Origin: Escherichia coli
Lineage (GTDB): Bacteria; Pseudomonadota; Gammaproteobacteria; Enterobacterales; Enterobacteriaceae
NCBI RefSeq assembly: GCF_003018115.1
Contig: NZ_CP027457.1
Strand: one strand, 5' to 3'
Length of the DNA stretch: 64,000 nt
The notes beneath the pieces were generated by a model. It saw only the letters and a program-made list of their open reading frames with translations, searched no databases and had not been told where the DNA came from. Below, piece by piece: positions 13,446 to 39,280 of the stretch (position 1 is its first letter; each line of letters starts with the position of its first letter). A program made the position numbers and the translations under genes.

Positions 13446-13456
13446 AAGGGAAACCT

Positions 13457-14107
13457 ATGACTACAGCGCCAGCCTCAATCCGCAAAAAGCCCTGATCTGG
13501 CGTATCGTCCATCGGGACAATATCCCGTGGATTCTGGACAATGGTCTGCACTGCGGCAACAGCCCGGTGCAGGCTGCTAACTGGATCAATATCGGCAACC
13601 CGGAGCTTATCGGCAAGCACGCCGGACATCCGGTACCTGTCGGGACGGGCGGGACACTGCGTGACTATGTGCCATTTTATTTTACCCCCTTCTCGCCAAT
13701 GCTGATGAACATCCACAGCGGACGTGGCGGCATTAAGCAACGCCCCAATGAAGAGATCGTTATTCTGGTCAGCAGCCTGCGGCACGTGGCAGCACACGAC
13801 GTGCCCTTCGTGTTTACCGACAGCCATGCTTACTATAACTGGACCAACTACTACACCAGTCTGGATAGTCTGGACCAGATCGACTGGCCCATTTTGCAGG
13901 CACGGGACTTTCGCCGCGATCCAGACGATCCGGCTAAATTTGAACGCTATCAGGCAGAGGCGCTAATCTGGCAACACTGCCCGATCTCGCTGCTGGATGG
14001 GATAATTTGTTACAGCGAAGAGGTCAGGTTACAATTAGAACAATGGTTGTTTCAGCGTAATCTAACAATGTCCGTTCACACACGGGCTGGATTGGTACTT
14101 CTCATGA
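13457..14107 (+). pseudogene. darT: DarT-like (DUF4433) DNA ADP-ribosyltransferase gene, reading frame disrupted as read
   Basis: ATG 13457 with AAGGG upstream opens a frame that stops after 12 codons; DarT-like sequence ([46 protein letters not shown]) continues in the -1 frame from about 13459 to 14103; the original frame resumes for the last codons before a TGA that overlaps the darG ATG (ATGA at 14104-14107). Confidence 0.55.
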
Positions 14108-15171
14108 TCACATATACACAAGGCAATTTACTGGACGCACCGGTGGAAGCTCTGGTGAATACGGTTAATACCGTCGGTGTCATGGGGAAAGGCATCGCGT
14201 TGATGTTTAAAGAGCGCTTCCACGAAAATATGAAAGCCTATGCCCTCGCCTGCAAACAAAAGCAGGTGATCACCGGCAAAATGTTCATTACCGAAACCGG
14301 GGAACTGATGGGACCGCGCTGGATTGTTAATTTTCCGACCAAACAGCACTGGCGCGCTGACTCCCGCATGGGGTGGATTGAAGATGGCTTACAAGACTTA
14401 CGTCGATTTTTGATTGAAGAGAACGTGCAATCCATCGCCATTCCACCGCTGGGCGCAGGCAACGGTGACTTGAACTGGCCGGACGTTCGGGCGCAGATTG
14501 AATCTGCCCTTGGCGACCTTCAGGACGTTGATATCCTGATTTACCAACCAACTGAAAAATACCAGAACGTTGCCAAAAGCACTGGCGTAAAAAAGCTCAC
14601 TCCCGCCAGAGCCGCCATCGCTGAACTGGTGCGTCGCTACTGGGTATTGGGGATGGAGTGCAGCCTACTGGAAATCCAGAAACTGGCCTGGCTGTTACAA
14701 CGCGCCCTTAAGCAGCATCAACAGGACGATATCCTCAAACTGCGGTTTGAAGCTCACTATTATGGCCCCTATGCGCCCAATCTGAACCATCTGCTTAATG
14801 CGCTGGACGGCACCTATCTTAAAGCCGAGAAACGCATCCCGGACAGCCAACCGCTGGATGTGATCTGGTTTAACGATCAGAAAAAAGAACACGTTAATGC
14901 GTATCTGAACAGCGAAGCCAGAGAGTGGCTACCGGCGCTGGAGCAGGTCAGCCAGTTAATTGACGGCTTTGAATCGCCGTTTGGTCTGGAGCTGCTGGCA
15001 ACCGTAGACTGGTTGCTGAGCCGTGGCGAATGTCAACCAACACTGGATTCCGTTAAGGAAGGGCTGCACCAGTGGCCTGCGGGCGAACACTGGGCCAGCC
15101 GTAAGTTGAGGCTGTTTGATAATAATAATCTGCAATTTGCCATTAACCGCGTAATGGAGTTCCATTGCTGA
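14104..15171 (+). CDS. darG: DarG-like macrodomain protein (predicted antitoxin / ADP-ribosyl hydrolase)
   Basis: [39 protein letters not shown] with IPPLGAGNG is a macrodomain signature matching my recollection of DarG; as read it is fused in frame to the upstream DarT-like region (track ORF 13567-15171). Confidence 0.7.
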
Positions 15172-15189
15172 GGGTTTAAGGAGCGCCTT

Positions 15190-18100: not shown

Positions 18101-18285
18101 GCCACGACGAGGTACTGGCGACCCGCATAGATACGACGATTCGCTATACCAAAAGGGCAGAGTGGATTGGCGATCGTTTTAAAGAACGGGAAATTGCCAA
18201 CGCATTACGTGAAGAGACCGCCAGCTATAATATTGATATTGATGAGGTGATAGCGCTTGCCCGTCAGCAGAAGGAATATCACTGA
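15190..18285 (+). CDS. hsdR: type I restriction-modification restriction subunit (SF2 helicase/nuclease)
   Basis: 1031 aa; helicase motifs HTQGSGKSLT, VFVDECHRTQ, FIGFTGTP; apparent TTG start at 15190 with AAGGAG eight nt upstream. Confidence 0.93.
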   Translation: MSTVGQRERATQQRLIQFFVEDLGYRHLSHRTGYTGNSNIDTNILSAWLKRRGVNDTLITRALRQLDSAAALGEGKKLYYANKEVYRLLRYGVKDKEGAGEQNQTVWLIDWANPQANDFAIADEVTVKGEYCKRPDLVLYVNGIALGVIELKRSSVHVSEGIRQNLDNQKKTFIRDFFTTMQLVMAGNDTQGLRYGTIETPEKYYLEWKEDNPGDYTHKLDFHLSRLCSKSRLLDIVHNYIAFDVGVKKLCRHNQFFGVEAAKQHIARREGGIIWHTQGSGKSLTMVWLAKWIRENVPNSRVLIVTDRTELDEQIESVFMGVNEDIYRTSSGNDLIATLNHPNPWLICSLVHKFGRRSEAEDNAATDAFITELQQSLTKTFRAKGDLFVFVDECHRTQSGKLHNAMTAILPDALFIGFTGTPLMKKDKKKSVEVFGPYIHTYKFDEAVADGVVLDLRYEARDIDQYLTSEKKVDDWFEAKTRGLSNLARTQLKQKWGSMQKLLSSKSRLEQIVNDILLDMDTRPRLMDGRGNAMLVCSSIYQACKVYEMFSQTELAGKVAIVTSYRPDAASIKGEETGEGLTEKLSKHATYRKMLADYFEQSEEKAAARITEFEREVKQRFIEEPGQMRLLIVVDKLLTGFDAPSATYLYIDKTMTDHTLFQAICRVNRLDGEDKEYGYIIDYKDLFRSLDKAITDYTTGAFDDYDRDDVAGLLKDRLEQAQLDLDSALEMVRSLCEPVKTPRSLQDYQHYFCGESGENQTSLNEKEALRLTFYQCVARLLRAYASIANEMPEAGYTAEEVESIRAEVAEFEKLRYEIKLTSGDLLDMKRFEPAMRHLLDMYVRADDSEVLMDFEELSLIELIVEKGLAATVALPDDIRNNQDAMAETIENNVRKTIVDENPVNPKYYGRMSQLLDELITLRRQNALNYQQYLERIRDLCKQVIRPEQTAGACYPATMDTQAKRAFYDNFGHDEVLATRIDTTIRYTKRAEWIGDRFKEREIANALREETASYNIDIDEVIALARQQKEYH

Positions 18286-19001
18286 TGCCAATCATGCAAA
18301 TAGGCTCGTTACACTTGCTGGTCAACCGTAAGGCGATTAAGAATCTGCATATCAGCGTGCTGCCGCCTGATGGCAAAGTCCGCGTTTCAGCGCCGGAACA
18401 TATGACGGAGACGGCGATTCGTATGGCGGTTGCTTCACGCTTTCGCTGGATCAGAAAACAGCAGCAGGATTTCGCCAGACAGCCTCGTCAATCAGAGAGG
18501 GAAATGGTCAGCGGAGAGTGCCACTATCTTTGGGGCCGAAGATATCGCCTACTTGTGATTGAGCGTCACGGGCGTCACGAAGTAAAAGTTGCGGGAAATA
18601 ATAAGCTCCAGCTTTATGTTCAACCGGGAACCCGTGATGAAAATAAGGCATTGGCGTTAAGTGAATTTTATCGACATGAACTAAAACAGCAGGTGGCTAA
18701 GCTTCTACCTGAATGGCAGGACCGAATCGGTGTTCCCCTAACATTCTGGGGCATCAAAAAGATGAAAACCTTTTGGGGCACCTGTAACACTACAACAAAA
18801 CGAATCTGGCTCAATCTGGAGCTAATTAAGAAGCCGCCGGAGTGTCTGGAGTATATTCTGGTGCATGAACTGGTTCATCTTCTGGAACGTCACCATAATG
18901 CTCGCTTCCGGTTGCATATGGATCGGTTTATTCCTGACTGGCGTGAGCGTCGGGATTTGTTAAATAATATGCCGTTAGCGTTTGAGGCATGGGAGTATTG
19001 A
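18285..19001 (+). CDS. HExxH zinc metallopeptidase (M48/DUF45-like) coupled to hsdR
   Basis: HELVHLLE motif; ATG overlaps the hsdR stop (TGATG at 18283-18287). Confidence 0.8.
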   Translation: MPIMQIGSLHLLVNRKAIKNLHISVLPPDGKVRVSAPEHMTETAIRMAVASRFRWIRKQQQDFARQPRQSEREMVSGECHYLWGRRYRLLVIERHGRHEVKVAGNNKLQLYVQPGTRDENKALALSEFYRHELKQQVAKLLPEWQDRIGVPLTFWGIKKMKTFWGTCNTTTKRIWLNLELIKKPPECLEYILVHELVHLLERHHNARFRLHMDRFIPDWRERRDLLNNMPLAFEAWEY

Positions 19002-22289: not shown

Positions 22290-23657
22290 CTACCTGTTTA
22301 GCTGTTTCAATATTGTTTCAAAAGACTTTTCATTGCCTTCAAAAGGTATGACTTGCTTCACCGCTTTTCCAGGGCCTTTACCCTGCGAGTAATCCCATAT
22401 ATTGATGTGTGTGCCTTTTTCAGGATCATAATCAACACGCCAACCAACTTTTCCGTCGCTGGATTGCCGCCCTATGACTTTCCCATTACCAGCGCTGACT
22501 TCCAAACGTCCGATAACTGGCTTAGAGTCCGCTCCTAAATTACCTACAAGATCCAATGCCTTGTTTCGAGCAGTTTCCCAGTTTTTCTCTGGCTTGAGGA
22601 TTTGTTCAATTTTAGGCTGGGAATTCCCTTTAACCTTACTAATTCCCCCAAATGCTGACGCCGCAGCGCTCGCGACTATTCCCGCCTGAACTTCATCCAA
22701 ACCGTATTCTTCTTGGAGTGCTTCCGAGACTTTGTTGGTCGCGACAACCCCTTCAGCCTGCATTTGCTGCGCAAAAGTCGCCGTCAGATCGTAGACCATT
22801 TTGATCGGGATATCTTCACCCAGAGCACGATCTATTGCCTGCTTCACCGCCAGACTGTCAGTCAGTACATCACCGTATTTCTGCTGGCAGGTTGCCGGGC
22901 TGGCTGCACAGTCACTGATCAGTTGCTTTTGCTGTGCCGTACTCAACTCTTCGTACTTTTTGATAATACCGCCGCAGTCACCGCCTTTCGCCTGACAGGA
23001 CTTCATTTCAGCGGACCAAGCATCTATCTGCTTACTGCTCAGATAGTTATTCTCAACAGCATTCTTCCCGCTTTGTGCTCCCACTGCTGCTGATGCGGTG
23101 CTGTTTCCGGTAAGACCTCCGGCCAGCCCTGCTGACACGGTTGCCAGCGTACTTATCGTTTGCTTCTGCTCTTCACTGAGGTCTGACTGTTTCACGCCCG
23201 GATACAGCATGCCGGCAATCGCTCTGACTGCCAGCTCTCCCGTTGCTGCGCCTGCTGCACCGGCAGCAACATTATTACCCTGCATTGCCGCCACTGCGCC
23301 GCCCAAAATGGCGTGAGCAATGGCGTTTACTGCCGGGTCTTTTTCTGTTGATTTCAGCAGGTGCGCCAGTTCCGGAGCCGAAGTTCCGGCCAGAGCACCC
23401 GCTAAATTACCCCCCGCCAGCCCCTGAAGCGCGGCCTGGATACCCCGCTGAATTTCACTGCCGGTACCATACTTCGCCATTTCATCCCTGTAAGCCTGCG
23501 TGTCACGCAGTTTTGCCAGATATGCCTGCCGCTGCTCTTCCGTCGCATCCGCCGGAACAGGCCCATATTTATCCTGCGCAGCCTTCAACGCATTCAGTTC
23601 CCCCTGCGTCCGCGCAATATCAGCCACCTGACTGCCTATGTCACTGATAAGCCCCAC
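22290..23657 (-). CDS. cdiA-CT: orphan CdiA C-terminal fragment (pre-toxin region, VENN motif, toxin domain)
   Basis: Contains [11 protein letters not shown]; region before VENN is homologous to the pre-toxin region of the full cdiA in this window; no upstream secretion domain. Confidence 0.75.
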
Positions 23658-24006: not shown

Positions 24007-24719
24007 TGCCCACTCCTGCGAAGAATAGTAACAATAATATTACTGTTATTTTCAGTGACTACACCTACGTCACCACTCCAATAAGTCGTTCTAGTTACGC
24101 CATTAACGACACTATTTTGAGGAGTTCCTTCTTTGATAACACTTTCAACCATATTCGGCGTTATATTTCTCCCTGGGCCAACTGTGCCGGCTGGAGAACC
24201 AGATGGCTGCATTCTATCAACAGCATGTTGTGAATACAAACGATGACCTATTTGTGCATATTGTCGCCCATCTACTGTAACCTTTCGATAATTTTGCCAA
24301 GAGTCCCAAGGTAACTTTTCAGAACTATTAGGTACGTTTTCTGATGAGGTTTTCTCATTACGTTGCTCTATTGATTCATTATTCCTGGCGTTCTCCTCAT
24401 CCTGCGGCTCCCATCCCCCCGGTGTTCCAGCACCTGCGCCACCAAGCTCAGCTTTCTCCTTGTCCGTAGCGCTCGCTACGTCTTTGCCCAGATTCGGCTG
24501 TTTGTTTTCGTCTGTATTGTCGCCATTCAGCACATACCCCGGCCCCCGGGCACCATCGCGACTCGGATCACGTACAGCACACTGTTCCCGTGAGCCTTCA
24601 CAACCACCACCGGTATCCCAGCTATTATCATTCCCGGTATCCTTACTGGCATTACCTGTAGCACCAGCTATTGCTGCTGCCGTATTAGCTGCTGTTTCAG
24701 TGGCTATCACGTTCAGCAT
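24003..24719 (-). CDS. orphan polymorphic-toxin C-terminal domain protein (no VENN visible)
   Basis: 238-aa ORF in the orphan array, coupled to a small downstream ORF; toxin fold not assignable from sequence alone. Confidence 0.5.
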   Translation of the reverse strand: MLNVIATETAANTAAAIAGATGNASKDTGNDNSWDTGGGCEGSREQCAVRDPSRDGARGPGYVLNGDNTDENKQPNLGKDVASATDKEKAELGGAGAGTPGGWEPQDEENARNNESIEQRNEKTSSENVPNSSEKLPWDSWQNYRKVTVDGRQYAQIGHRLYSQHAVDRMQPSGSPAGTVGPGRNITPNMVESVIKEGTPQNSVVNGVTRTTYWSGDVGVVTENNSNIIVTILRRSGQ

Positions 24720-24736
24720 ATTGTTTTCAGCAACAA

Positions 24737-24955
24737 CTATTTACGATAGTATCTTCGCATTTGTAGATAGAGTTGTAACCAAATCCCAGCACCTCCCCAT
24801 AAGCCAACTACTGCGCCAATTATTCCGTATTTTACATACACCTCAGAAGGTATTGGTTCCCGAGCTATAAGCCAGATACTAACCACTATTCCAATAGAGC
24901 AAGTAGCTATAGATATAAGTAACAACTTAATAAGAAGTAGTAGATGTTTTTTCAT
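24737..24955 (-). CDS. cdiI: small membrane immunity protein (pair 2)
   Basis: 72 aa, two hydrophobic segments (LLLLIKLLLISIATCSIGIVVSIWLI and IIGAVVGLWGGAGIWLQLYL); overlaps the upstream toxin stop. Confidence 0.6.
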   Translation of the reverse strand: MKKHLLLLIKLLLISIATCSIGIVVSIWLIAREPIPSEVYVKYGIIGAVVGLWGGAGIWLQLYLQMRRYYRK

Positions 24956-25809
24956 TTTTTGTCTCCATCAACTTCTTTTTGCGTTGCGCTGCTTGCACCT
25001 TCTGATACGAATGAACCAACAAATCCACCAAATGTTCCTGGTATAGAGCTCATTTGGCCGCCTTGATACATACCGTATCCGATAGACTTTTCCGAATATT
25101 GCAGTGAATATTTACTGGCGTCCATTCCCAGTTGATTTTTGATGTATTGAGCTTCTAACTTATTAGTAATTGAAGCCCCAATGTTATAGCCAAGGCCTGT
25201 ACCAGCCATGCTACCCACTACTGATGCGGTACTGTCCTGGCCTTCAATCTGGCTGCTCATGTAAGCGCTACCGGCACCCAACAACTGATTAGCGTAATAT
25301 CCTTTCCCGGCTGTACCTACACCAGTCAAGCCTGACATCATGAAACTGAGATAATCGAACTTATCACCGATATTTCCCGTACCAATTTGTACCGCACCAT
25401 TAGCCCCATAGCTCAGCCCGGCACTGACAAATTTTTCAGTCAGCGTGGCTGATGATGTTAACAATGAACCCGCTCCGGCAACCGTACCCCAGTAATTTTC
25501 CGGTTCCCCGAAGAAAGCCAGAGCCTTATCACCTTTCGATGTGTTGTTGTTCAGATAGTTCAGGTCATAGCTGTTACTTTCAGTGACGTAGTTCTTCACG
25601 TCCTGGTTTTCCAGCGAACCATACAACCAGCCAGGCCGACCTGCCGCGCTGAGTCCGCCCTCAATATTCCATTTATCTTCCCCGGACAGAGCCGTCAGAG
25701 GATCTGTGGCCACATCAATGTGTAATTTCTGTCGGTGCTCTGCGCTTATTACAGCATATTTATTCTGAATATCGCCGCAGTCTCCACCCACTTTACGACA
25801 GGCCGTCAT
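24952..25809 (-). CDS. cdiA-CT: orphan CdiA-CT, glycine-rich membrane-active (ionophore-like) toxin domain
   Basis: In-frame VVVENNYLS is encoded at about 25836-25860, upstream of the first Met; body rich in G-x-x-x-G/A runs. Confidence 0.65.
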   Translation of the reverse strand: MTACRKVGGDCGDIQNKYAVISAEHRQKLHIDVATDPLTALSGEDKWNIEGGLSAAGRPGWLYGSLENQDVKNYVTESNSYDLNYLNNNTSKGDKALAFFGEPENYWGTVAGAGSLLTSSATLTEKFVSAGLSYGANGAVQIGTGNIGDKFDYLSFMMSGLTGVGTAGKGYYANQLLGAGSAYMSSQIEGQDSTASVVGSMAGTGLGYNIGASITNKLEAQYIKNQLGMDASKYSLQYSEKSIGYGMYQGGQMSSIPGTFGGFVGSFVSEGASSATQKEVDGDKK

Positions 25810-26173
25810 TTCTCTGTCAAAAGCATGCGCCTCGTCGTAGCTGAGGTAGTTATTCTCAACAACAACTCTTTCCGACGTAAGTTGCTGCGATGAACCCTAT
25901 TTTCTCCTTGCCTTTCCGTGAATTACAACCGTTTTCCCCTGCTGTACTTCCTGCCTGCCAACTTTTTGCCCCGACGCGCCTTTTTCGTCTGAACACGCTA
26001 CCGCCCCGGTGAAAAGTCCACCGAGTAAATAGCCTGCGGCTATTTAACATAACGCGCGGGAATTATGCGCAGTTCAGGAGGCCGAACCACGCATAATCAG
26101 CGTTATGTCTTGCGCCCTTCAGAAGCCTGCGATAGTGCAGGCTGACAGTCAGGAGACCCAGACGGTTAAGATA

Positions 26174-26467
26174 TTAACTGTCGGGCTCTCCTTTTTTATT
26201 ATTTTTATAATCAATCATCAAGTTATTCACCTCATTCCATAGTTGCTCATCGTTAAATTCGTATTCTTCACGATCATTATCTGGGTTGTACATATCAGCC
26301 ACACAGAAGACACTGGATAATAATTCACTTAGATTATCATTATCTTGCTTAAGTAGGTTACTATCACGCTCACCCTTCCACTTCGCCATATAAGTGTCGG
26401 TAAAATATTCAGCCGATATATTCTTAGCAAGAAAATCATCAATGTATTTTTTAAGAGACTGACTCAT
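26174..26467 (-). CDS. cdiI: orphan CDI immunity protein (pair 1)
   Basis: 97-aa acidic ORF whose start overlaps the stop of orphan toxin 26464-27237. Confidence 0.55.
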   Translation of the reverse strand: MSQSLKKYIDDFLAKNISAEYFTDTYMAKWKGERDSNLLKQDNDNLSELLSSVFCVADMYNPDNDREEYEFNDEQLWNEVNNLMIDYKNNKKGEPDS

Positions 26468-27237
26468 CTTAATGTCCCGTTATTTATGAAGTTTTCATAT
26501 TGCTTCGTTTGAGGATCAAGCTTCCACCCACTAACAAAATTACCAGATTTATCAATTACAACCACATTATTAGTTTGTGGATTGAAGAACACCTTTGATT
26601 CTGGAATTAATAGGTATGTCCCATGTTCATAAGTCGTCTTATTATCTAAATGTGATTTGATGGCAGCCTGATATTCTGCAATGGTATCACTATTTTTCTT
26701 AGTTGTTATTACGCCAAAATCAGAAGCATGTTTAAATTTCTTATCTAACTGTTTTGCGCTGAAAGCGACACTATCAGAGACGATTGTAGCTCCAGCATTT
26801 GGAATTTTCTTCCCTGGAAGTATAAGGCTAGCCAGTATTCCGCCAGTTGCTTCCAGCGCAGCCTGGTTCCCTCCATACGCTTGTTTCACATTCTCTGCTA
26901 CTGCTGACCAGGTTTCACTTTGCATCAGCGCTTTAACGCTGTCTGCCACTGCCTGATTTTTACCCGCCAAATCACTCAGTGCTTTATCACAATAGCTTTC
27001 GCCGGTTGCACATGAGGCGAGCGCCATTGCCGCATCACCCACATAATCGGCTGAGCCTATTGCCGTATCACCGGAGTCAGCGATGACATTAATAATGCCG
27101 TTGGCAATAGCCGATGAGGCTCCGTCTCCCAGCTTATCCCTGACCTGTGTTTTCCACCATTCAGCACTTTGTTTGACCGATTCCCTGGCCTTATCACCCG
27201 CCAGCGAGTTATTCTCAACAACAACTCTTTCCGACAT
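26464..27237 (-). CDS. cdiA-CT: orphan CdiA-CT-like toxin beginning MSERVVVENNSL
   Basis: VENN-type junction directly after its own ATG; 257 aa. Confidence 0.65.
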   Translation of the reverse strand: MSERVVVENNSLAGDKARESVKQSAEWWKTQVRDKLGDGASSAIANGIINVIADSGDTAIGSADYVGDAAMALASCATGESYCDKALSDLAGKNQAVADSVKALMQSETWSAVAENVKQAYGGNQAALEATGGILASLILPGKKIPNAGATIVSDSVAFSAKQLDKKFKHASDFGVITTKKNSDTIAEYQAAIKSHLDNKTTYEHGTYLLIPESKVFFNPQTNNVVVIDKSGNFVSGWKLDPQTKQYENFINNGTLR

Positions 27238-27438
27238 AAGTTGCTGCGATGAACCCGGATTCTCCCTGCATTTTCCGTTAGTTACAGCCGATTTTCCCTG
27301 TTGTACTTCCTGCCCGCCAACTTTTTGTGCTGTTAAGCGTTTCTGGCCCCGCAGACGCTACCGCCCCGCCGTGACGCGCCACCATCATATAAGCAAACTA
27401 CAGCACCACTTAGGATGGTGGTGTCTTGGATTTATATT

Positions 27439-27822
27439 TCAATTAAGAAGTTCCTTTGATACGTTACCAGTATCAAAAAACTCTTTTAAGATCTTTACAA
27501 TAAGTTCACAGTCTTTTGTAAGCTGAGATTCCGGCCAGTAATCACCAAGAATCACCATTTTTGTATCAGGTTTAGATGAGTCCCAGTACGTTCTTACTTG
27601 GTATTCATCTTCAAAAATTTCACCTAATGTTATCAAGTAATAACCATTCTCCGTTCTGATCTGAAGCATTTCAGCGCTATTATCGCCACTGTTCTGTATA
27701 TCAAGAGTAAGTGTTCCTTTTTTTCCCTGAATTAGTTTAAACTGATTTAATACCATGTCCCAATTTGAGATCTGTTTATTGCCACCTGTTTCGCCCAGTG
27801 TCCAACTCACTTTAAAATTCAT
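27439..27822 (-). CDS. cdiI: cognate CDI immunity protein for the CdiA C-terminal toxin
   Basis: 127-aa ORF starting 2 nt after the cdiA stop; canonical cdiA-cdiI arrangement. Confidence 0.7.
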   Translation of the reverse strand: MNFKVSWTLGETGGNKQISNWDMVLNQFKLIQGKKGTLTLDIQNSGDNSAEMLQIRTENGYYLITLGEIFEDEYQVRTYWDSSKPDTKMVILGDYWPESQLTKDCELIVKILKEFFDTGNVSKELLN

Positions 27823-27823
27823 T

Positions 27824-30800
27824 TTAATCCCTAACCTTGAGAGATTTCATGCCAGGCTGCCAGTAGAGGACTGATCCTGTAGCCTCTTCATAAATTGTTA
27901 AAGATTTTAGCCCCGCTTTATCAGCCATGGCTGCTATATCACCGCGGCAATAACCACATACAGGCTCTTTAGATACACTCATTGTCATCTCACGCCCTTG
28001 AGACATACCCTTTTCAAAAGCTTGCTGTATAACACCTACTTCAGCATGAGCTGTAGCCATATTGCCGTTAGGAAGAGGCTTGTTTTGCTTATCTATTTTA
28101 GCTTGGATTCGTCCATCAATGAGTGTTGGCTTATTCACATCTGCTAAGTTGGAAGGCCTTGCACCCTGATTAGTATCAGTAAACTTAGCTCCATCAACAT
28201 TACCTTTCGCTACGACCTTAAGATTAGCATCAACGATTTTACTTAATTGTTTTGCCGCAGCAGAACCCAAAATTGGTGTCACCGAAGCCGCAATGCTCTC
28301 CAGACCCTGCTTTGTTTCGGTGTAGCTTTCTGCGGTCTGACGATCCACCCCTTTGGTGACCATGAAATAGTTAATCATGGCGTCTTTCACCTGTTGCTGA
28401 TTCTGTGCATCAACACTGGTGATATCGAGGAGATTGACCATCTGACCATACGCATCAGCGTATTGCTGGCTGTATTTCGAGTTATAAGGGCCATCTTCGT
28501 ACCCTTCTTTCGACGCAATAACTTTCAGTCTTGCGCTGGCACACGCTGAACTACCCGCATTACCATTACCGCAGGCAGCAATAACCTCCTTATCACTGGC
28601 AATATCTTTCTCACGCAGAGCATTATATTTCTGTTGCGCCTTTTCGCGCTCTGCCGGATCTTTACTATTTTTAAGCGTCTGTTTTGCTATCTCAAGCTCT
28701 GTCTTTTCAGACACGCTAAGATAGTTATTCTCAACCGCGTTCCTGCCTGCCTGTGCCCCCGTACCGGCAGACGCCGTACTGTTGCCTGCAAGCCCGCCCG
28801 CAATACCTGAGGCAATGGTGGCCAACATGCTGATTTGCTGACGTTCCTGTTCACTCAGGTTATCAGTACGACCACCATAGTAGTTATCAATGATATACCG
28901 GGCTGCAAGTTCACCGCTGAATGCCCCTGCAGCACCGGAAGCCGCATTGTTTCCGCCCAGTTGTGCGGCAAGCGCTCCCCAGACTGCGTGAGCCATCAGG
29001 TTTGCTTCCCGGTTATCGCCGGTGGCCTGTTTTATAAGCTGTGCCACTGCCGGATTCAGACCGCCAGCCAGTATCTGCCCCGGATTCCCTGCATTCAGTC
29101 CGCCCAGCACACCCGTGATGGCCTGTACCACCATCTGCGGCGTACTGCCCGTACCGTAGCCTTTCATGACCTCTCTGTATTCCGGGGTCTCCCGCAACTG
29201 TGCATCGCTCATGCCAGGATGCTCTTTCCTGGCTGCTTTCATCGCTTCAGTTTCGCCATACGTCATGACGATGTTACTCATCTGACCGCTAATCTGGCTG
29301 ATAACCTGCGCTTCCTGCAGACGCTTCTGCTCTTTCTCCCTGTCAAATATCGGTGCAATGCTGCCGTTGGCGTTTTCCGGGTCCCGGCTGAGCCCGGCAA
29401 TATCCTGCTTCTGACTCTCATTATCACGGATAATGAGATTTCCGCCGCTGATGGCGGATGACGTGGTACCTTCAGCATGTCCACTGCTGCCGGACATACC
29501 GGTAAGTGCGTTCGCCGCACCGGCTATTGCATTTGAGGCCACCATCTGGCTGGCTGACATCCCTGAGCCACCCGATAAACTGATTCCGGTATGGCTGGCT
29601 TTATAGTCTGCCTGGTTATGGATATCCGACCAGCCCAGCGTATTGGTATTGAGGCTGTTTTTGTCATCCGTTGCCGTGGACGCAATTACCGCACCATTGA
29701 GCTGAGTGTGATTCCCAACAGTGACATCAAACCCGTCTTTTCCGGCGTAGATACCACTCTGTTCCCGGACAGAATCGTAATTGCTTTTAATTTTGTCCTG
29801 ACTGATGCTGGCATAGCCGCTGCCGGACATTGAGCCAAACGTGAAGCTTCCACCTGCAGCCACGCTGTTCTGTCTGCTGTCGTAACGGTCACTGTCCTGA
29901 AGGCTCGAAATGGTCAGGTTGTTGCCGACATCTGCTGTGACTTTCTCGCCACTGACCTGAGCCCCCGACAGGGTGGTATCACGTCCGCTTGTGAGGGAGA
30001 CATTTTTACCCGCATCCAGCGTGGTTTCGGTCCAGGTCGTGCCGTTGCCTTTCTCCCTGCCCTCTGAACCATTGATACCGGCGAAGATACTGAGGCCTCC
30101 GCCATTGGTTCCACCACCAAAGCTGACGCCCACGCCGCCACCTTTGCTGCTGTTCTTCCCGGTTGTCTGTCGGGTGTCAGCGGCGGCAGCCAGCAGAATA
30201 TCGTTCTGTGCATTCAGGCTGGTGTCATTGCCGGACTTAATCTGGCTCCCGGTAATGAGAATATCGCCGCTGTTGTTATGGTCCTTATTTTTCCCCGTGG
30301 CAGTGACAGAGACATTGTTACCGGCGCTGAGGGTTGAGCCGGAGACGATATCGTGCTGATATTTCGTCTCAGACTTCGACTGCTGATGGTTGAGCGAAAT
30401 GCTCACGCCGATACCATTATTCGGGTCAGCACTCTGTTGCTGCAGTCCGTGGTTAACACCGGCCTGTACACCAGACAGAACCGCCTGTGTTCCTTTCAGT
30501 GCCGCCAGACGGCTGTCGCTGGTTTCTTTCGCCTCCCGGGCCATGGTGGCAGCATTATTGATGGCACTGCCCACTGTGCCGGAAAGGGCAACCGTCAGCC
30601 CGCTTTTCTTCTGCTCAAATTTTTCGTCCACAGTACGACGGTCATGCCCCGGGTCAACCACCACACTGTCACCGGTAATGCTGATATCCCGGTTCGCAAT
30701 CACATCCGAACCGCTGATATGAGCCTGTTTGCCCGCGGTAATACTGACATTACCAGCAGTGGAGCCGATGGTGCTGGCACTCTGACTCTGCGTTGTCCCG

Positions 30801-33800
30801 GCCTCGCGGCGGTCGTGCGTTGTCTTACTGCTGCCAGTGGTGAAACCAATACCGCCGGTACCCGTCAGACCGGATTTCTTCGTTTCCTTAAAGCGCCAGG
30901 ACGTATCTGTACTGGTGGCAGCAAGAACATCAACATGGTTATCCGCCGCCAGTGACACATCCCAGTCAGCCACCACATCCGAACCCTGTACCGTCAGGTT
31001 ATTACCGGCGTTAACGGTCACGCGGTTTCCCGACAGCAGGGAGCCCTTCTCACGGGTGACGCTGTCTTCCGTGATGGTCCGGGTGGTCTGATGGCTGAGG
31101 AGACGGTTACGGGTTTCCCCTGATTCACTGTAGTGATAATCACTTTCCGTGGCAGTACCCAGTACGATGTCATGACCGGCATTCACACGGATATCGCCCT
31201 TTGCCGTTACAGCGGTCGCAACTGAGGTGATATCCCGTCCGGCAGTAACCGTAATGTCACCGCCACTGGTCATGTCTGTTCCCTGCTGCCGGACCGAATC
31301 ATGAACCGTCTTCATGCTGAAAGTGCTGTCGTGGTCACCTGCGCCTGTGGACTCCGCAGCCATGTTCACATCCCGTCCGGCGCGGATAGCCATACTGTTT
31401 TCAGCCGTAATACCGGCAGCCTGGCTGTTCACATCACGACCGGCGGAAAGCATCAGACTGTTCCCGGCAGTGACCGTGGGGGCCACGGCATGAGTTTCAT
31501 ACCACCCGGACCCGCCATAGCGACGACGTTCTCCGGCCTGTATCGCGTTCATGTTCAGGTCATTACCGGCGGACAGTAACACGCTGTCACCGGCAGAAAC
31601 GGCGGCACCGGTGATACTGATATCCCCGGCTGCGCCCATAAACAGTGAGTCCGTTGCCCTGACAGCAGCCAGCGGACCGGTATCCGTTCCGCTGAAATGG
31701 TTATATCCGTTGTTCATCGCCCACTGTTCTGTCCGGGTGAGGTTACTGATGTTTCCGGTGGCGCTTTCCAGGGATACGGTTTTACCGCTGATGACTGAGC
31801 TGATATTGCCGATATCCCCGATGGCCTTCAGGTTCAGTGCACCACCGGCGTTTATCAGTCCGGCATTCAGGTTGTCGATACTACCTGTGCTGTCGAGCAG
31901 GAGGTCATTCTGTGCGTTGATGCTGCCGCCGCTGTTGGTGATATTGCCACCCGCAAGCTGCACGTTGTTCCCGCTGATAACGCTGCCATTATGAAGGGTG
32001 ATATCTTCCGGAGACAGATACAGTTTCGGAACCATGACTGTCTGTCCGTTGATGGTGACTGACTCCCACCACAGCAGGCTTCTGGTCAGTTGTGCAACCT
32101 GCCCGGCGGTCAGCGACACTCCAAAGGTCAGTCCGAGCGCTTTCTGTTGCGCTGCCGCGCTGTCCATCAGGTATTTCATCTGCGCCAGGTCAGAGCCTGT
32201 GCCGTTAATATAACGTGAGCCCGTCTGGTTCAGTATGACGTTACTGACATACCGGGTATCAAAAGCCGCATCCCCCAGAAAGCGGTAATCTTTTTCCGGT
32301 TTCAGGCCAAGACGGTCAAGAATGTACGACGAGCCCAGAAACTGTTTTTCATCGGTATATGCCGGGTCTGTTTCTCGTGGTGCCTGTCCGGGTTGCATCC
32401 TGAGCAGGTCATACAGTCCGGCAAACAGACTGCTGTCCACCTTTCCGAGACCATCCAGTTTCGGGTTCACCGTAATCAGATACGGACTGTCCGGGTCCGT
32501 GGACGGGACAAAATAACCATTGTTACCGGATGGCAGGGGATAGTTGCTTACACTTGCCCCGGACAGCGACAGCGCACCCGGGATATCCTTCAGCGTATCC
32601 GGCAGCGCGTCATTCCATACAGGGCCGGTTATCCCGGTACCGCTTTCATTCAGCAGGGCTTCACCGCTCACCCCCTGACTGACCGTCGGTGGTGTCAGGG
32701 AGTTCAGCGAAGGCACCGTTATCGTGTTACCTGCACCACCTGCCCGGGGCATGACAGTGGTATTACCGGTGTCAGTGGCAAAGCTGGCAGACACATCACC
32801 GGCAGCGCTGATAACCGCACGGTACTGACCTGCCGGAGAGGTGCCACTGGCTTCTGTCGCATCCGGCGAGACCTGGCGATAGACCTTATACCATGGCTCA
32901 GTAAACCACGCTTTGGGGAGTGAGCCGGAGGCAAGCCGCCAGACCGTTTCCTTTCCGGTGGTCCCCTCCTGCCAGCCCTGATTGTTCAGTGTGTCGCCAC
33001 TCAGGGTCATACTGCCACCGGCGAGAAGAAACGATGCCTCATTATCCAGTCGTCCTGCACGGATATGCATATCAGCGCCGCCGGATATCCGGGCAGCATG
33101 ACCGGAGGCACTGACTGTCACCGTTTCCGTATCGCCCGTACGGATACGGTATTCATCAGGTACCGTGGCACCCTCCCCCCAGTACACGGCCAGATATTCC
33201 ACACCATCATGCCGGACAACACCCCACCAACGGTTATTTTCCGGAACCGGTGAAATCACCCCGCGACTGCTTCCAGGAATGACCTCATGGCTGGCCGAAA
33301 TGGCATCCCAGGAATTCAGCAGATGCGCCGTATTCATGGTGATATCGCCACGTGTGGTTTCAATATTACCGGAACGGTTAATGATTTCGCTGTTTGCCGT
33401 ACCGCTGCTGTCCTTCTGTACCCACAGACTGTTGCCGGCCAGGATATCACCATGCTGGTTATGCAGACGGTCTGTAAACAGCTTCAGGTTATTCCCCGCA
33501 TAAATCAGCGCACTGTTCAGCAGGGTACCGGCCACATTCATTGTCAGACTGCCTGCCGTGCCGGTAAAACCACTGATGGTGATATCACTCCGGCTGTTCA
33601 GACTCACATCGCCACCGGCCTGAAGTGAACCCGGTGCGTTAAGGAAAAGACGCTGTGCGCTGAAAACACTGTTGCCTTTACCGGCAGTCAGCGTTCCATT
33701 GTTGGTGAATGCCTCTCCGGCACCGAGCACCATGGCATCACCCAGCATGACACCGCCGTTGGTGATGGCATTTTGCGACGTGACGGAAAGGGTTTTCCCT

Positions 33801-36800
33801 GCGGCCAGGGTACCGTAATTCGTGAGGGCAGCAATCAGTTTCAGTGTGACATCACCGGTGGCCACCACCTGGCCCTGACCACTGAAGTCCTGAGCGTCAA
33901 GCAGCAGGTTGCCTGCACTGTACAGCCGCCCTGTACCATTTTGCAGCAGTGAACTGCCCTTGACGCCAAGCCCGGAGGTTCCCAGCAGGGTACCGCTGTT
34001 GCTGAATGTGTGGTAATTCACCAGCAGATCCGCACCCTGAAGCGTACCGATATTATTCAGCGTGGTTCCTTTAACGTCGGCACTGCCGGTGGCAAGTACG
34101 CGTCCGCCGTTGACAGTATTCACCACATCCAGCAGCAGGGTGGCAGCCTGTACCAGTCCGCTGCCGGTGTTCGCCAGCACCTGCGCCGTCAGCGTGAGGT
34201 TACTGCCGGAGAAGATTTTGCCGTCGTTCTGCAGACGGTCAGTGGCGTTCAGGGAAACCCCGCCACCACCCTGTATCGTGCCCTGGTTACTCAGGGTCGC
34301 AGTACTGACATTCAGTGCATTCCGGCTCATCAGAACACCACCGGAACGGTTGTTCACGCCACCGGAGGCGGCCAGCGTCAGCGTTTCGCCCTGCAGATGC
34401 CCGCCGTTTGTGAGTTGTCCTGCCGTGATGGTGGTGGCATTTCCCTGTAATTGCCCGTCGTTTGTGACACTGTCTGCCTTCAGCGTCAGCACACCTGCAC
34501 TGAGCAGTTTTCCGCTCGCGTGATTGTTCAGCGTCTGATTCACCGTGAGCGTGAGAGCATCCACACCGGTGATGTCACCCGCACTGGTCAGTGAGTTCGC
34601 CTTCAGAGTCAGATTTTTTGCAATCCATTGTCCGCTGTTGCTTAAATTCAGTGCACTGAGCGCCATTTCACCGTTCGAGGTGACTTTGCTGCCTGCTGTG
34701 CTGACAAGCTCACCCGTCAGACGTGCAGTCAGGCTGTCAGCCGCCTGGATCGCCCCGCTGTTTGCCAGACTGTCTGCGGTGATCAGCACCCGTTTGCCCT
34801 GCCAGTGTCCGGAACTGGTAATACTGCCTGCGGTGATTGTCAGATCGCCGCTGGTCAGCAATGAACCTCCGTTATTCATCAGCGCAGGTTGAGGGGATAC
34901 CATACGAGCAGCAAGCGTCAGCGCGGCAATCCCGGTGAGCGAGCCACTGTTGGTGACACTGTTCTGGCGAATCGTGACATGGTCACCCTGGACAGTGCCG
35001 CTGTTATCCAGTGAGTTTCCATCAAGGGAGAGCGTGCCGGCCGAAAGCAGACTGCCCCGGTTGTCCGTGGTGGCTGCTTTCAGCGTGGTGTCACCCTGGC
35101 TCATGATATCGCCGGTACTGGTCAACTGACCGGTTGCCGAAGCAGTAAGGTTACCGGTTGCCAGTACGGAACCACTGTTCGCCCATCTGTCCGCCTGCAC
35201 GGTGAGATTCTGTCCCTGCGTGGTCCCTGCGGTATTCAGTGTTTTACCCCGGAGGGAGAGGTCGCCCGCCGTCAGCCAGCGTCCGTTACGGCCCTGTGAG
35301 AGGGTGTCGCCTGCAAGCGCCAGTGCACCTGCGCCCTGCAACAGGCCATCGCCATCCAGCGTGGTCGCCCTGACGTTCAGCGTGTCAGCGGTGATTTTTC
35401 CCGGATTGCTGAGGGAGGCAGTGTTTAACGTTAAACCGTTATCACCGGTGATAAGCCCGCTGTTGCGGATGTCCGGTATATCCAGCGTCAGGTCTGCAGC
35501 ACTGTACAGCGTGCCGTTCTGCTGATTATCAAGCCTCTGTGTGTTAACGGTGAGTGAGGCCTCCCCCTGCAACAGACCGCTGTTGGTCAGGGTCTGTGAC
35601 TGTGTATTCAGGGCGGAAGCAACAAGTACGCCGCTGCTGGTCAGTTCCGGCGCAATGAGGCTGAGCGACGGGGCACTGCTTTTCCCGCTGTGGGTGAGCT
35701 TTTCACTGGCGTTCACCACCATGGTCTGTTGTGCTGCCTGCGTACCTGCAAGACGTGCATCTCTGGCGTTGATGCTGAGATTTTTGCCGCTCTGAAGTTG
35801 TGCGCCCGCTGCGGTACTCAGTTTGTCTGCCTGAACCCGGAGGGTGTCACCGGCACTGGTTTCCCCGTCCAGCGCCACGGTTGTCACATTCAGCGTCATC
35901 GCAGCATCGCTGTGGGTGACTGATTTTTTACCGGAGCTCAGCGTCTGCGCACTGACTGTCAGCCCTTTGCCGCCGGACAGCACACCGTTCTGTGTCACAT
36001 CCTGCGCCTTCAGCACCAGTACATCATCGCTCACCAGCGAACCTGTACTGGTCAGTTTCCCACTGGCTGTGATATCCACTTTGCCCTTCGCGCCAGTGCG
36101 GCCGCTCTGGGTAAAGTCGCGGGTATTCACGGTCAGGCGACCGCCACTGAGCAGGGAGCCACTGTTGCTGAGCGTTGTACTGCCGAGCGTCAGGGAAGCC
36201 CCCTGAACAGCACCACTGTTATTCAGCGTGCCGGCATCGAGTCCCGCATGACCTTTCGCCAGCAATATTCCGTCCTGTGTCAGCGTGGTGGCGCTGGCCG
36301 TGAGATTCTGCCCGGCGGTTATCTGTCCCTGTGTTGTCAACGTGTCACTGGCGACAGTCACAATATTGCGGGCCGCGTTAATCTGGCTGGCGGTATCCTG
36401 TGTGATGTTTTTCGCGGCAAGCGTTACATCCCGGCCGGCAGTCAGTTTTTCATTCTGTTGAGTGATTCTGCCGCCGGCGGTCAGGCTGAGGTCCTTGTCG
36501 CTGTTAAGCGTTCCATTGCTGAGAACGATATCGCTCCGGCTGCTGACGCTCAGGTTACCTCCCGCTTTATGGTCGCCGGTTAAGGTGACGCCCTGACCTT
36601 TTGCAGTGACGGCCCCCGTGGCGAGACTGTTGTTGACAGTCAGTCTGCCGCTGGCATCCAGGGTGATATCGCCATCGCGGGCATAAAGGTTACCAAGATT
36701 AACCCCGACACCACTTTCAGTGGAGGTCAGATGAATACGCCTGGCGTACATTCCACCGAGCGCGCCGGTATCAACGGCAACTTTCGGCACATCACCTTCG

Positions 36801-37501
36801 CCCTTCAGTGCACTGACACGACCATCTGCAGTTATCCGGTTAGCGCCTGCAGTGACAGTTAAATCCTTCGCATGAAGCGCGGCATTCACTTCCGTTGCAC
36901 GGGCAATAATGGATACGGCATCGCTCCGGGTGCCGTCCAGGCCCGCGCCATTGATGGTGATACTGCCTTCAGTCACCTCCAGCGCCTGCAGGCTGCCGTC
37001 GGCATTCATCACAGGTCTGCCCGTGGTGAGCGTCGCGTGCGGCGTGTTGATAAAACCACAGCCGTCACAGGTGATACCATACGGGTTGGCAACAATCACA
37101 TTCGCCGCTTTGCCGGCCACTTCCGTATAGCCCTGCAGCAGTGAACGGTTACCGCCGGTCACTTCGTTGATGATACCCTTCGCTTCCCCGCCCGCTTTCA
37201 GGTTCGGGTTATTCTGTATCAGTCCACCAAGCTGCGTCGGATTAAGCTTACCGGTGGCATTATTGAGAATCAGCCCTTCCTTCCCGACGTTGTAATCCGT
37301 AAACCGGTTATGCGAAATCCCGGCCCCGTTCGGCGTGGCAATGTTCACGACCGGCACACCATTTGCCGCTTTATCCATTCCGGCCCCGTTTTGTGGGGTG
37401 ATGACGGCCCCCACAGCCGGTAACAACGGCTGCCCGGCGATAATCGTACTGATAAGGTAACTCAGCAGGCGGTAAGTGAAGCGAACGGGAGGCTGATGCA
37501 T
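27824..37501 (-). CDS. cdiA: contact-dependent inhibition exoprotein CdiA (3225 aa) with a deaminase-like C-terminal toxin
   Basis: N-terminal two-partner-secretion domain ([21 protein letters not shown]), long repeat region, pre-toxin VENN ([11 protein letters not shown]), C-terminal HAEVGV...(~25 aa)...PVCGYC. Confidence 0.95.
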
Positions 37502-37513
37502 GGTAATAATCCC

Positions 37514-39280
37514 TTAAAACGCGACGGCAACGCGCCAGTAAACCGTGAGATGGTCAGGGGCAAGCCAGTCCGGGTAGACCAGAGGCAGTCCGGCGGTGAA
37601 CGAACCGGAAACATGACCACTGGTGGTGCTGAGCCCGGCAGCAGCACCCCACAGCGTGCCGGACGAGTACGGGTCATCGCTGTCAGAGTGCAGCCAGCCG
37701 CCGTCCAGTGCAGCCACTGCACGGACAGTTCCCACATATGGCAGGGAGAACAGAGACCAGGACAGCTCATTTCGCAGATAACCGCCGTTATTACCGGAGA
37801 TATACTGCTCCTTAAAGCCACGCACTGAACTCTCACCCCCGAGGCTCAGTTGTTCCACACCATGAAGACGGTCCGGTGACCACTGGGCATAAGCGCTGGT
37901 CAGCCACCACACCCTGTCCGTGACGGGGCGCTGAAAACTGGCACTCACCGACCATTTCCGGAACTGATTTACGGGCAGGTCTCCCCTTTTCCCGTGGTCG
38001 CTTTCTGCGCCGAACCAGGGCATCCCCCGTGTGAATACCGGATTCAGTGTTCCGACCCCCCCCAGAAACTTGTGTGTGTGATTCAGCCCGACAGAAAATG
38101 AAGTGAGTTTACGGCTGCTGCCCTGAAGCAGAACATCATCCAGATAATTGTGAATAATGCGGTGCTGCAGACCTCCGGTCAGTGCTGTCTTCATGTCCCC
38201 GTTACGGAACAGAACATGCGACAGTCCCAGCCGGTGAGTCTGCAGGTCTCCCGTGGAACGCCACCGCCAGCCCCGGTTATCAATGGTGCTGAGGTAGTCA
38301 CTCCATGAATACGTGTAATCCACCAGGGTATAGCCATACGGCAGACTGACACCGGCGGCAAAATTCCTCGCATCATGTGACACCGAAAAGTCACTGCTCC
38401 GTCCCCCGCTGACAAACCAGTTGTCAGCCAGCCCCAGCGGATTATTAAAGGAAAGGACACCATTTAACTGCCCCGTACCGGTATTCTTCTGTCCGCTGTT
38501 GTCGAAGCCCGCGCTCCCTGTGACAGGCCATTCCGGCGATGCCGTCAGTGTCACCACCGACCATCCCTCACGGTCACCGGGCGATATTTCAATCTGTACC
38601 GGCTCCGTACGCAGACGGTTAATCTGCTCCATCCCCTGCTCAATATCCCGCAGGTTCAGAACCGCCCCCTCCATTCCCGGGAAAACCATCTTCAGGGTGC
38701 GGGCAGGAAGGTCAGCGCCTTCCGCCCGGATTTGCTGCAGCCTGCCTTCCATGACCGTTATGTGCAGTACGCCCCCTGAAAGGTCCTGCTCTGTCAGAAA
38801 GGCCCGGCTGGTGATATATCCCCGACGTATATAGCCGTCCGTCACAGCATCCGTGACCGTGGTCAGCCCCGTGATATTCAGACACTGATTCACCCACGGT
38901 GCCACCAGTCTGTCGGTTTCTGCAGACGTCAGTCGGGTGGCCCCACTGACAACAATGCGTGACACCGTAAAGCAGGGACCTTCAGTACCGGCAGACGTTT
39001 CCCGAGACGGTACAACAGTCAGCGGCGTACTGCGCTCCAGCGCATCACGCTGACGCTGGTTTTCATCCAGCAACTGCTGCTGTTGCTGCTGAATTGCACT
39101 GCGGTCACCCGGAGACAGCATGGCTGCCGGAGACGAAAACGAAAGAATACAAAGGCAGGGGAGGAGGGAAAAATAGCGTGCCACCGGAGAGAAAGTGCGG
39201 AGCTTAAATGCGCACTGACCGGAAACCATACCAGGCAACAAATTTCTGTTCGCCAGTAAGTTATCCTGCCGGTGCTGCAT
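37514..39280 (-). CDS. cdiB: CdiB two-partner-secretion outer-membrane transporter (Omp85/TpsB family)
   Basis: 588-aa ORF ending 12 nt upstream of cdiA with a terminal aromatic residue (WRVAVAF), typical TpsB position and size. Confidence 0.9.
   Translation of the reverse strand: MQHRQDNLLANRNLLPGMVSGQCAFKLRTFSPVARYFSLLPCLCILSFSSPAAMLSPGDRSAIQQQQQQLLDENQRQRDALERSTPLTVVPSRETSAGTEGPCFTVSRIVVSGATRLTSAETDRLVAPWVNQCLNITGLTTVTDAVTDGYIRRGYITSRAFLTEQDLSGGVLHITVMEGRLQQIRAEGADLPARTLKMVFPGMEGAVLNLRDIEQGMEQINRLRTEPVQIEISPGDREGWSVVTLTASPEWPVTGSAGFDNSGQKNTGTGQLNGVLSFNNPLGLADNWFVSGGRSSDFSVSHDARNFAAGVSLPYGYTLVDYTYSWSDYLSTIDNRGWRWRSTGDLQTHRLGLSHVLFRNGDMKTALTGGLQHRIIHNYLDDVLLQGSSRKLTSFSVGLNHTHKFLGGVGTLNPVFTRGMPWFGAESDHGKRGDLPVNQFRKWSVSASFQRPVTDRVWWLTSAYAQWSPDRLHGVEQLSLGGESSVRGFKEQYISGNNGGYLRNELSWSLFSLPYVGTVRAVAALDGGWLHSDSDDPYSSGTLWGAAAGLSTTSGHVSGSFTAGLPLVYPDWLAPDHLTVYWRVAVAF

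Follow-up and report, generated by a model that had tools for sequence, protein, structure and literature searches.

The stretch of DNA examined here, which we call the window, comprises 64,000 nucleotides of the Escherichia coli contig NZ_CP027457.1 (assembly GCF_003018115.1) and carries a contact-dependent growth inhibition (CDI) operon, cdiBAI, followed by an array of orphan toxin/immunity modules. Two similar blocks precede the first two of these modules, and both are very probably pseudogenised 5'-end fragments of a small, self-contained toxin gene of lipoprotein type. Block 1 (27207..27368, minus strand) lies between the main cdiI and orphan toxin 1, and block 2 (25848..26008, minus strand) lies between the orphan-1 immunity gene and orphan toxin 2. 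Each has the layout of a lipoprotein leader, with a lipobox, a linker and a VVVENN junction, in a decayed state. The evidence consists of the homology of the blocks, the lesions they carry, the existence of intact homologues that bear a lipobox, and the polymorphism of the toxin domains found behind this one leader. An earlier reading of the window, made from its letters alone (the sequence-only reading), had listed a relic of a different toxin system among its options. That suggestion is borne out, in that the blocks most probably stem from the 5' coding end, or leader, of a VENN toxin gene that is of lipoprotein type and belongs to a family other than CdiA.

Similarity and lesions of the two blocks

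The two blocks (27368..27207 versus 26008..25848) are 81.6% identical over 163 nt by blastn (E = 4e-38). A global alignment restricted to 27238-27380 and 25862-26010, the limits used in the sequence-only reading, has 105 of 131 columns identical (80%) and scores 70, while 300 shuffles give 4.9 +/- 2.5 with a maximum of 15. The similarity noted by eye is therefore real and far above chance, and the figure of about 85% given for it has to be lowered to 80-82%. The strings quoted at that time, the reverse complement of GGGTTCATCGCAGCAACTTA and CAAAAAGTTGGC.GGCAGGAAGTACA.CAGGGGAAAA, do both occur. Both end in the junction GTTGTTGTTGAGAATAAC (VVVENN; 27208..27225 in block 1 and 25849..25866 in block 2, minus strand), where orphan toxin domains 1 and 2 begin; an identical run of 29 nt is common to the blocks at this point, and the VVVENN junction is invariant across the leader family described below.

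In the VENN frame block 2 is translated as GAVACSDEKGASGQKVGRQEVQQGKTVVIHGKARRK*GSSQQLTSERVVVENN. Its alignment with a leader from Erwinia sp. P0001 and with plasmid leaders is gapless from GAVAC to VENN and is interrupted only by the single stop, and the block is 98% identical to the leader at the head of the array in E. coli C10. Its lipobox codons, GGGGCGGTAGCGTGT (GGG GCG GTA GCG TGT, for G-A-V-A-C; 25993..26007, minus strand), hold an exact RfaH ops12 site, which is taken up below. The block has no ATG. Its linker contains an in-frame TAG (25897..25899, minus strand), after which 12 codons are open up to the V of VENN at 25860; this stop is common to all the E. coli copies examined that keep the signal-peptide region, namely those of C10, C11, ZYB39 and CEC15; GXU-23-25-310 is a fifth E. 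coli genome with this region, outside the four inspected.

Comparison with E. coli CEC15 indicates how block 2 came to lack its start. CEC15 has the same arrangement of colicin-D orphan, immunity gene and leader, with the ATG and signal peptide still present. Near-identity of the two sequences covers the first 57 nt beyond the immunity gene and resumes at TTCACCGGGGCGG, continuing to VENN, but the intervening 165 nt, which in CEC15 contain the upstream region, the ATG and the signal peptide, have been swapped for unrelated sequence in the window. From the alignment with this syntenic interval, the segment that replaces promoter, ATG and signal peptide extends over 26009..26124 (minus strand). 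About 93 nt in the replacement region, absent from CEC15, are bounded by 7-nt direct repeats, CGCAGGC (26131..26125 and 26038..26032), and may represent a small mobile or repeated element. A 170-nt flank around this piece (window 26032-26131) recurs at 79-85% in several other loci, and a 41-nt piece occurs inverted in an Erwinia gap between ParE and the leader gene.

Block 1 aligns with intact leaders of Salmonella, Enterobacter and Erwinia. In its lipobox codons, GGGGCGGTAGCGTCT (27353..27367, minus strand), the Cys codon TGT has become the Ser codon TCT, giving G-A-V-A-S, and a 1-nt insertion just downstream shifts the frame by +1, so that translation in the lipobox frame reads GAVASAGPETLNSTKSW...N and then meets a stop. 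The signal peptide is at most a stump, MMVARHGGAVAS. Block 1 has a single ATG, at a distance of 6 codons from VENN; nothing resembling a Shine-Dalgarno sequence is visible upstream of it, and there is no signal peptide. The sequence-only reading had both blocks closed by in-frame stops roughly 15 codons before the junction; this applies to block 2 only, as the VENN frame of block 1 has 46 open codons before it is closed by a TAG at 27360..27358. The PROSITE lipoprotein rule PS51257 asks for a Met start, K or R in the first 7 residues, an uncharged hydrophobic stretch and the pattern [LIVMFWSTAG](2)-[LIVMFYSTAGCQ]-[AGS]-C, with the Cys at position 15-35. Neither window copy obeys it, since block 2 is without ATG, n-region and h-region and block 1 has Ser for Cys, and both are therefore relics.

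Similar relics are found well beyond the window. The block is carried by about 62-66 of 5,426 complete E. coli genomes. Each E. coli locus inspected has it placed between an immunity gene and the domain of an orphan toxin; the toxin domains that follow it are of many kinds, and its sequence upstream of VENN carries no coding annotation. The homology begins at the same point, the lipobox, in 57 of 62 E. coli genomes, and none of the E. coli copies examined is intact. Metagenomes were scanned for the leader-specific junction GAGTTGTTGTTGAGAATAA, and the hits were pooled with all other loci to give 166 junctions, of which 103 have leader homology upstream, representing 84 unique sequences. The leader is broken in 80 of these 84; the 4 intact copies all come from loci that were fetched through protein hits. 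The downstream toxin open reading frames (ORFs) are mostly full length. Positions of stops and frameshifts vary widely among the copies, and decay must therefore have occurred many times. One 11.5-kb contig (L015 2096-11377), binned as Aeromonadaceae and probably enterobacterial, has seven leader relics, one ahead of each orphan module.

The likely history of the window is that toxin/immunity modules which once bore a lipoprotein leader became silent orphans behind cdiBAI. Block 2 lost its promoter, start codon and signal peptide by replacement or deletion and carries the TAG stop; block 1 lost its acylated Cys, acquired a frameshift and shows no recognisable signal peptide. The local feature in the window is ordinary decay, and the blocks presumably serve no purpose now, except that recombination between leader-bearing modules could use their homology of about 160 bp.

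A family of intact leader genes

An intact leader is about 215 nt long and encodes a lipoprotein signal peptide (for example MPKKLTRLMSLLLCLVIFTGAVAC), the lipobox GAVAC and a linker of about 45 residues that ends in ...ERVVVENN. The linker has the motifs SGEKGASGQKV..VTHGKxREK..ERVV and is followed by the VENN junction and a CdiA-type toxin domain. The view that coding does not explain the similarity of the blocks is thus wrong in historical terms: in homologous loci, on plasmids of Enterobacter and Salmonella and also in Erwinia, the same block is coding, an outcome that the sequence-only reading had itself named as refuting it. When proteins were searched with the translation of the VENN frame, this led to an ORF of Erwinia sp. 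P0001 which has a signal-peptide-like N-terminus, MIKLRKALTWVLCAVMAAGAVAC, continues directly as AGEKGASGQKVAVPEVQQGK...EKVVVENNSLSGDKARESV, with an EKVVVENN junction, and carries the same toxin domain as orphan 1 of the window. A word-index search with the block translation returned only 4 proteins, and an exhaustive profile search, which found 74, was needed to reveal the family. Complete members come from Enterobacter, Cedecea, Erwinia pyrifoliae, Erwinia oleae and an unclassified Enterobacteriaceae isolate.

Complete leader-headed toxin genes, of 210-576 aa, occur on Enterobacter and Salmonella plasmids and on Erwinia, Cedecea and Enterobacter chromosomes. Two Enterobacter plasmids (L031 and L032) have 287-aa genes with an identical leader, MPKKLTRLMSLLLCLVIFTGAVGC followed by SGEKGASGQKV...ERVVVENN, fused to different toxin domains. 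Other complete genes are those of a Salmonella plasmid (L033), of E. asburiae (L030 8472-9389; 305 aa), of P0007, P0008, P0009, P0010, P0014 and P0016 (210-576 aa) and of Erwinia pyrifoliae (L139). WP_223540630.1, from pJBIWA003_1, is another intact member. The toxin domain of window orphan 4 is joined to the leader on one Salmonella plasmid and on one E. asburiae chromosome. A single leader therefore stands on unrelated C-terminal domains (L031/L032; P0007-P0016), as in polymorphic toxins. Small ORFs lie downstream of the leader-toxin genes, and in L030 there is a PM0498 immunity-type domain. Because one constant leader is fused to many toxin domains, each with an immunity gene, it appears to play a part like that of the CdiA stalk; it would take the role of the 3,000-residue stalk, but with a lipoprotein export signal.

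All 23 of the N-terminally complete members conform to PS51257. Where divergent members have lost the nucleotide motif, a lipobox made of other residues (LAGC, LSGC, ASAC) is still there, and between lineages the signal-peptide region differs by substitutions and by indels of 9 and 12 nt, both multiples of 3. For an Enterobacter and Erwinia orthologue pair, the proportions of nonsynonymous and synonymous differences in the toxin domain are pN = 0.28 and pS = 0.77, so that the gene is under purifying selection. No family in Pfam or NCBIfam covers the leader, and PT-VENN (PF04829) has no match at E <= 0.1 in four intact leader proteins. In the literature searched, which left out most subscription journals and so may have missed an earlier account, we found no description of a lipoprotein or lipobox form of CdiA-CT toxins, and the leader-toxin family appears to be undescribed there. 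From their sequences, the intact leader proteins are predicted to be lipidated and to act as toxins. Just upstream of the ATG in Erwinia-type elements is a conserved sequence (GCTGTTAAAATGCGCG..GCAGGGAAAGCGGGATG) that looks like an extended -10 together with a ribosome-binding site.

Recombination, RfaH and other explanations

Several observations weigh against reading the blocks as decayed coding sequence. The 80 broken copies have no codon periodicity (mean information at positions 1, 2 and 3 of 0.86, 1.01 and 1.02) and no third-position excess of change, and they keep their length, the lipobox lying at -145 +/- 3 nt from VENN. In the leader of an intact orthologue pair (L031 5965-6183 versus L139 10001-10216) pS is 0.27 and pN is 0.26, the pS being far below the 0.77 of the toxin domain; this pattern, unlike that of a typical coding region, could be due to recent exchange, to a relaxed, disordered linker or to nucleotide-level constraint. 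Decay alone does not account for the persistence of so many relics, and the literature searches gave no report on lipidation or toxicity of any family member. The kept length, the lack of a third-position excess and the low leader pS therefore make DNA-level constraint or frequent recombination possible. The conserved nucleotide patches match conserved peptide motifs of the family (EKGASGQKV, VTHGKxREK, ERVVVENN).

Recombination has to be considered together with the genetic setting of the intact genes. In E. coli C10, C11 and ZYB39, in Erwinia pyrifoliae (as two tandem units) and in an Enterobacteriaceae isolate, the gene order is cdiA, cdiI, (SymE, antisense), a helix-turn-helix (HTH) gene (antisense), a DnaG-like primase of about 1,000 aa, a tyrosine recombinase and ParDE or DinJ-RelE, after which come the leader-VENN toxin, its immunity gene and further orphans. 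On Enterobacter and Salmonella plasmids the unit of primase, recombinase and toxin-antitoxin genes occurs without cdiA. Such units lie immediately upstream of intact or near-intact leader-toxin genes at L142 19067-24290 (E. coli C10), L139 3726-9330 and 11169-16447, L141 4273-9236 and L031 609-5847. This gene order is as expected if a circular element had integrated by exchange at VENN-coding sequence, an event that would also fit the VENN-to-VENN module boundaries described by Poole et al. (PMC3150448). A search of the same literature for a link between integrases or primases and orphan modules gave nothing relevant.

In Erwinia-type elements a gap of about 700 nt without a called gene separates the recombinase and toxin-antitoxin genes from the leader gene (L010 2300-2970, L139 9330-10000, L141 9236-10000); in L010 it is G+C-rich by eye. 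In orphan arrays of Erwinia and Pantoea, genes of the SymE toxin family are found where the repeated element has its boundary, antisense and right after immunity genes (L139 3726-3944, 11169-11387 and 18949-19125; L029 17117-17407; L140 73-642).

The blocks may thus be footprints of a second route by which CDI toxins are deployed, with a lipoprotein leader in place of the CdiA stalk, on cargo elements of about 7 kb that shuttle cassettes; we put this broader scenario forward tentatively, as a conjecture that is somewhat more likely to fail than to hold. In such a scheme the element would consist of an HTH regulator, a DnaG-like primase, a tyrosine recombinase and a toxin-antitoxin pair, with the leader-toxin gene as cargo, and it would insert between cdiBAI and the orphan array or reside on plasmids. 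Cassettes would be shuttled between CdiA and lipoprotein genes by exchange at VENN-coding sequence, seeding the orphan arrays, and the ops in the lipobox might additionally load RfaH and so carry transcription through the untranslated orphans.

An alternative, a recombination substrate having also been among the options of the sequence-only reading, is that the block is itself a recombination site acting at the level of DNA, either a homology patch through which a head gene with the leader could capture toxin domains from orphans downstream, or an attachment site of the tyrosine recombinase. The equal conservation of all three codon positions and the constant length of broken copies would suit such a site, as would the low synonymous divergence of intact leaders, the abrupt start of homology at the lipobox in the 57 E. 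coli genomes, the 29-nt run common to blocks 1 and 2, the presence of up to 7 relics in a single array (L015) and the position of intact or near-intact leaders in C10, ZYB39, Erwinia and plasmids, immediately downstream of a primase, an XerC-like recombinase and a toxin-antitoxin unit. However, a sharp 5' boundary is also expected because the signal-peptide region is variable, and the conserved patches coincide with the conserved amino-acid motifs of the intact proteins. The window, by the annotation of an identical locus, holds neither the recombinase element nor an intact leader. When the left end of the C10 element was searched for a direct repeat of the leader, only iteron-like AT-rich repeats were seen, and comparison with an empty site was confounded by insertion sequence (IS) elements. 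On balance we regard a dedicated recombination site as unlikely. The iteron-like repeats of C10 (L142 18617-18710) number four (TTAATGCAA / TTAGTGCAA), are spaced about 10-20 nt apart and could be an origin or recombinase arm sites.

It has also to be asked whether the block is kept for an RfaH site of the ops (JUMPstart-like) kind, in which case RNA polymerase coming out of cdiBAI would load RfaH at the block, and this would curb Rho-dependent polarity over the untranslated orphan toxin sequences and let the orphan immunity genes be expressed. The lipobox codons of block 2 contain, on the non-template strand of the operon, an exact ops12, GGCGGTAGCGTG (25994-26005, minus strand), which has all 12 nt of GGCGGTAGnnTG, the wild-type sequence according to PMC5995543. 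Those of block 1 contain the G12C variant GGCGGTAGCGTC (27354-27365, minus strand), with one mismatch, and this variant still recruits RfaH in vitro (PMC5995543). JUMPstart (RF01707) is the best Rfam match, the 14-mer GGGGCGGTAGCGTG being equal to the 3' end of the model consensus; six of eight intact leaders match GGCGGTAGNNTG, with the rare Val codon GTA; and untranslated orphans are natural targets of Rho. Against this, the JUMPstart match reaches 20.3 bits where the gathering score is 35 (E = 0.54 in a 4.5-kb search), the 5' half of the model is missing, and block 1 gives no match. The ops is exact in 13 of the 80 broken copies, whereas four control 10-mers from the same block are exact in 14-28 of 80, and common variants alter bases essential for RfaH, as in GCCCGTAGCGTG, which carries G4C. 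In intact genes the site lies within signal-peptide codons and not in an untranslated leader, and no ops was found upstream of cdiB.

Among divergent intact leaders the ops is gone but a lipobox (LAGC, LSGC) persists, so conservation attaches to the protein feature. Because it is no better conserved than neighbouring bases, the ops is probably incidental to the lipobox codons, and retention of the block for RfaH seems to us distinctly improbable. The perfect ops of block 2, lying in the transcribed strand, may by its sequence recruit RfaH; a search for RfaH control of CDI in the same literature gave nothing relevant.

A shared promoter, proposed in the sequence-only reading, or a structured RNA leader of the orphan modules is very improbable. 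The placement of the blocks immediately 5' of two modules would suit either, and block 2 folds slightly better than its shuffles (z = -1.95), but block 1 does not stand out (z = -0.78), and a sigma-70 scan of both blocks found no site. Across 19 diverse copies, RNAalifold recovered no covariation and no structure other than a trivial hairpin of 6 pairs, which falls in the invariant junction. The likely extended -10 of Erwinia-type intact genes (TGTTAAAAT) is found outside the block, 5' of the ATG; in intact homologues the segment with the likely promoter, ribosome-binding site and ATG precedes the block, and in the window this segment has been replaced. A search for a known RNA family returned only the sub-threshold JUMPstart match and chance matches to microRNA and small nucleolar RNA families, and this candidate was rejected.

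That the blocks are instead the decayed PT-VENN pre-toxin coding region of another class of full-length cdiA can be almost wholly discounted: cdiA sequence is indeed preserved ahead of VENN in many orphan modules (PMC3150448), and also in orphan 4 of the window, and about 27 nt at GKNAVENN of the resident cdiA resemble the block junction, but the resident cdiA has no similarity to the blocks beyond that junction, the intact leader proteins give no PF04829 match, in every intact homologue the sequence opens a short ORF with a signal peptide and not a CdiA stalk, and in P0014 the leader and a genuine PT-VENN region are separate, consecutive segments. Descent from the resident cdiA upstream of its own VENN was rejected, as alignments of the blocks with cdiA and orphan 4 yield only the ~27 nt at ...GKNAVENN, with scores inside the shuffle range.

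The locus in the window and comparison with known systems

Genes in the window were assigned from the ORF list and from the RefSeq annotation of an identical locus (L003), that of E. coli strain 2014C-4135, with which the window agrees at 100% across the query. The resident operon (27439..39280) lies upstream of both blocks and consists, on the minus strand, of cdiB (39280..37514), cdiA (37501..27824; 3,225 aa, with its own NAVENN junction at about 28735) and cdiI (27822..27439). Directly after the cdiI stop, and upstream of block 1, is a terminator-like hairpin (CACCACCATCCTAAGTGGTG; 27404-27423, minus strand); the 66-nt flank that contains it (27375-27440) recurs at 86-94% upstream of leader relics in more than 10 metagenome loci. 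Four orphans follow cdiBAI in the same orientation. Orphan toxin 1 (MSERVVVENN...; 26464..27237, minus strand) has a colicin D-type tRNase domain (Pfam Colicin_D, E = 2e-17), and its immunity gene is at 26174..26467 (minus strand). The frame of orphan toxin 2 extends from VENN for 302 codons (24952..25860, minus strand) to a glycine-rich C-terminus and is followed by an immunity gene at 24737..24955 (minus strand). Orphan 3, on the same strand and without a leader, has the variant junction VVAENN at 24731 (24719-24740), which abuts the stop of the preceding immunity gene. Orphan 4 (23657..22290, minus strand) keeps a CdiA-type region upstream of VENN (23057-23657), and its toxin domain is, as noted above, also found behind the lipoprotein leader on a Salmonella plasmid and in E. 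asburiae. Copies of IS66 lie beyond the array, and past them (approximately 1-19000 of the window, by the annotation of L003) is a defence cluster with a type I restriction-modification system, an M48 peptidase and DarTG, in which darT is frameshifted.

For the window itself the message is a modest one: the blocks are best regarded as pseudogene remnants and not as regulatory elements, save for a possibly active RfaH site. Remains of the lipoprotein leader are found on many orphans, here and in at least 84 distinct copies across Enterobacterales. This would imply a further means of circulation for CDI toxin domains, on small lipoprotein genes that provide their own export and travel with a primase/recombinase element, and it bears on the origin of orphan modules, on the movement of toxin domains between delivery systems and on the delivery of CdiA-CT domains without CdiA.

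The two modules headed by the blocks resemble the orphan cdiA-CT/cdiI modules of Poole et al. 2011 (PMC3150448) in position, orientation and layout: both lie downstream of cdiBAI on the same strand, with a VENN junction, a toxin ORF and then a small immunity ORF, and both lack initiation and secretion signals of their own. A classical orphan either has cdiA sequence ahead of its VENN or begins abruptly there, whereas the blocks contribute about 145 nt from an unrelated lipoprotein-type leader; homology of the upstream sequence to full-length cdiA, frequent in orphans though not obligatory, is absent from them. Block 2 resembles JUMPstart/ops leaders (RF01707; PMC5995543) in having an exact 12-nt, non-template ops in a horizontally acquired, partly untranslated array, but the Rfam match of this ops is sub-threshold, intact genes have the site among their signal-peptide codons, and it is not conserved in preference to its surroundings. 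Myxobacterial SitA (PMC5562445, PMC8546572) likewise combines a lipobox N-terminus with a variable toxin and an immunity gene. SitA is delivered by TraAB outer-membrane exchange, which is lacking in Enterobacterales, and it has no homology to the leader family. The Neisseria MafB and mafB-CT system (PMC4287609; PMC3482391) is similar in its signal peptide, constant N-terminal region, polymorphic toxins and immunity genes, and it too has silent alternative cassettes downstream. MafB has a DUF1020/MAFB-N domain and a separate MafA lipoprotein, and there is no sequence relationship between it and the leader family, which, unlike MafB, bears the lipobox on the toxin itself, has a constant part of only about 45 residues and joins it to the toxin domain through the CDI VENN junction.

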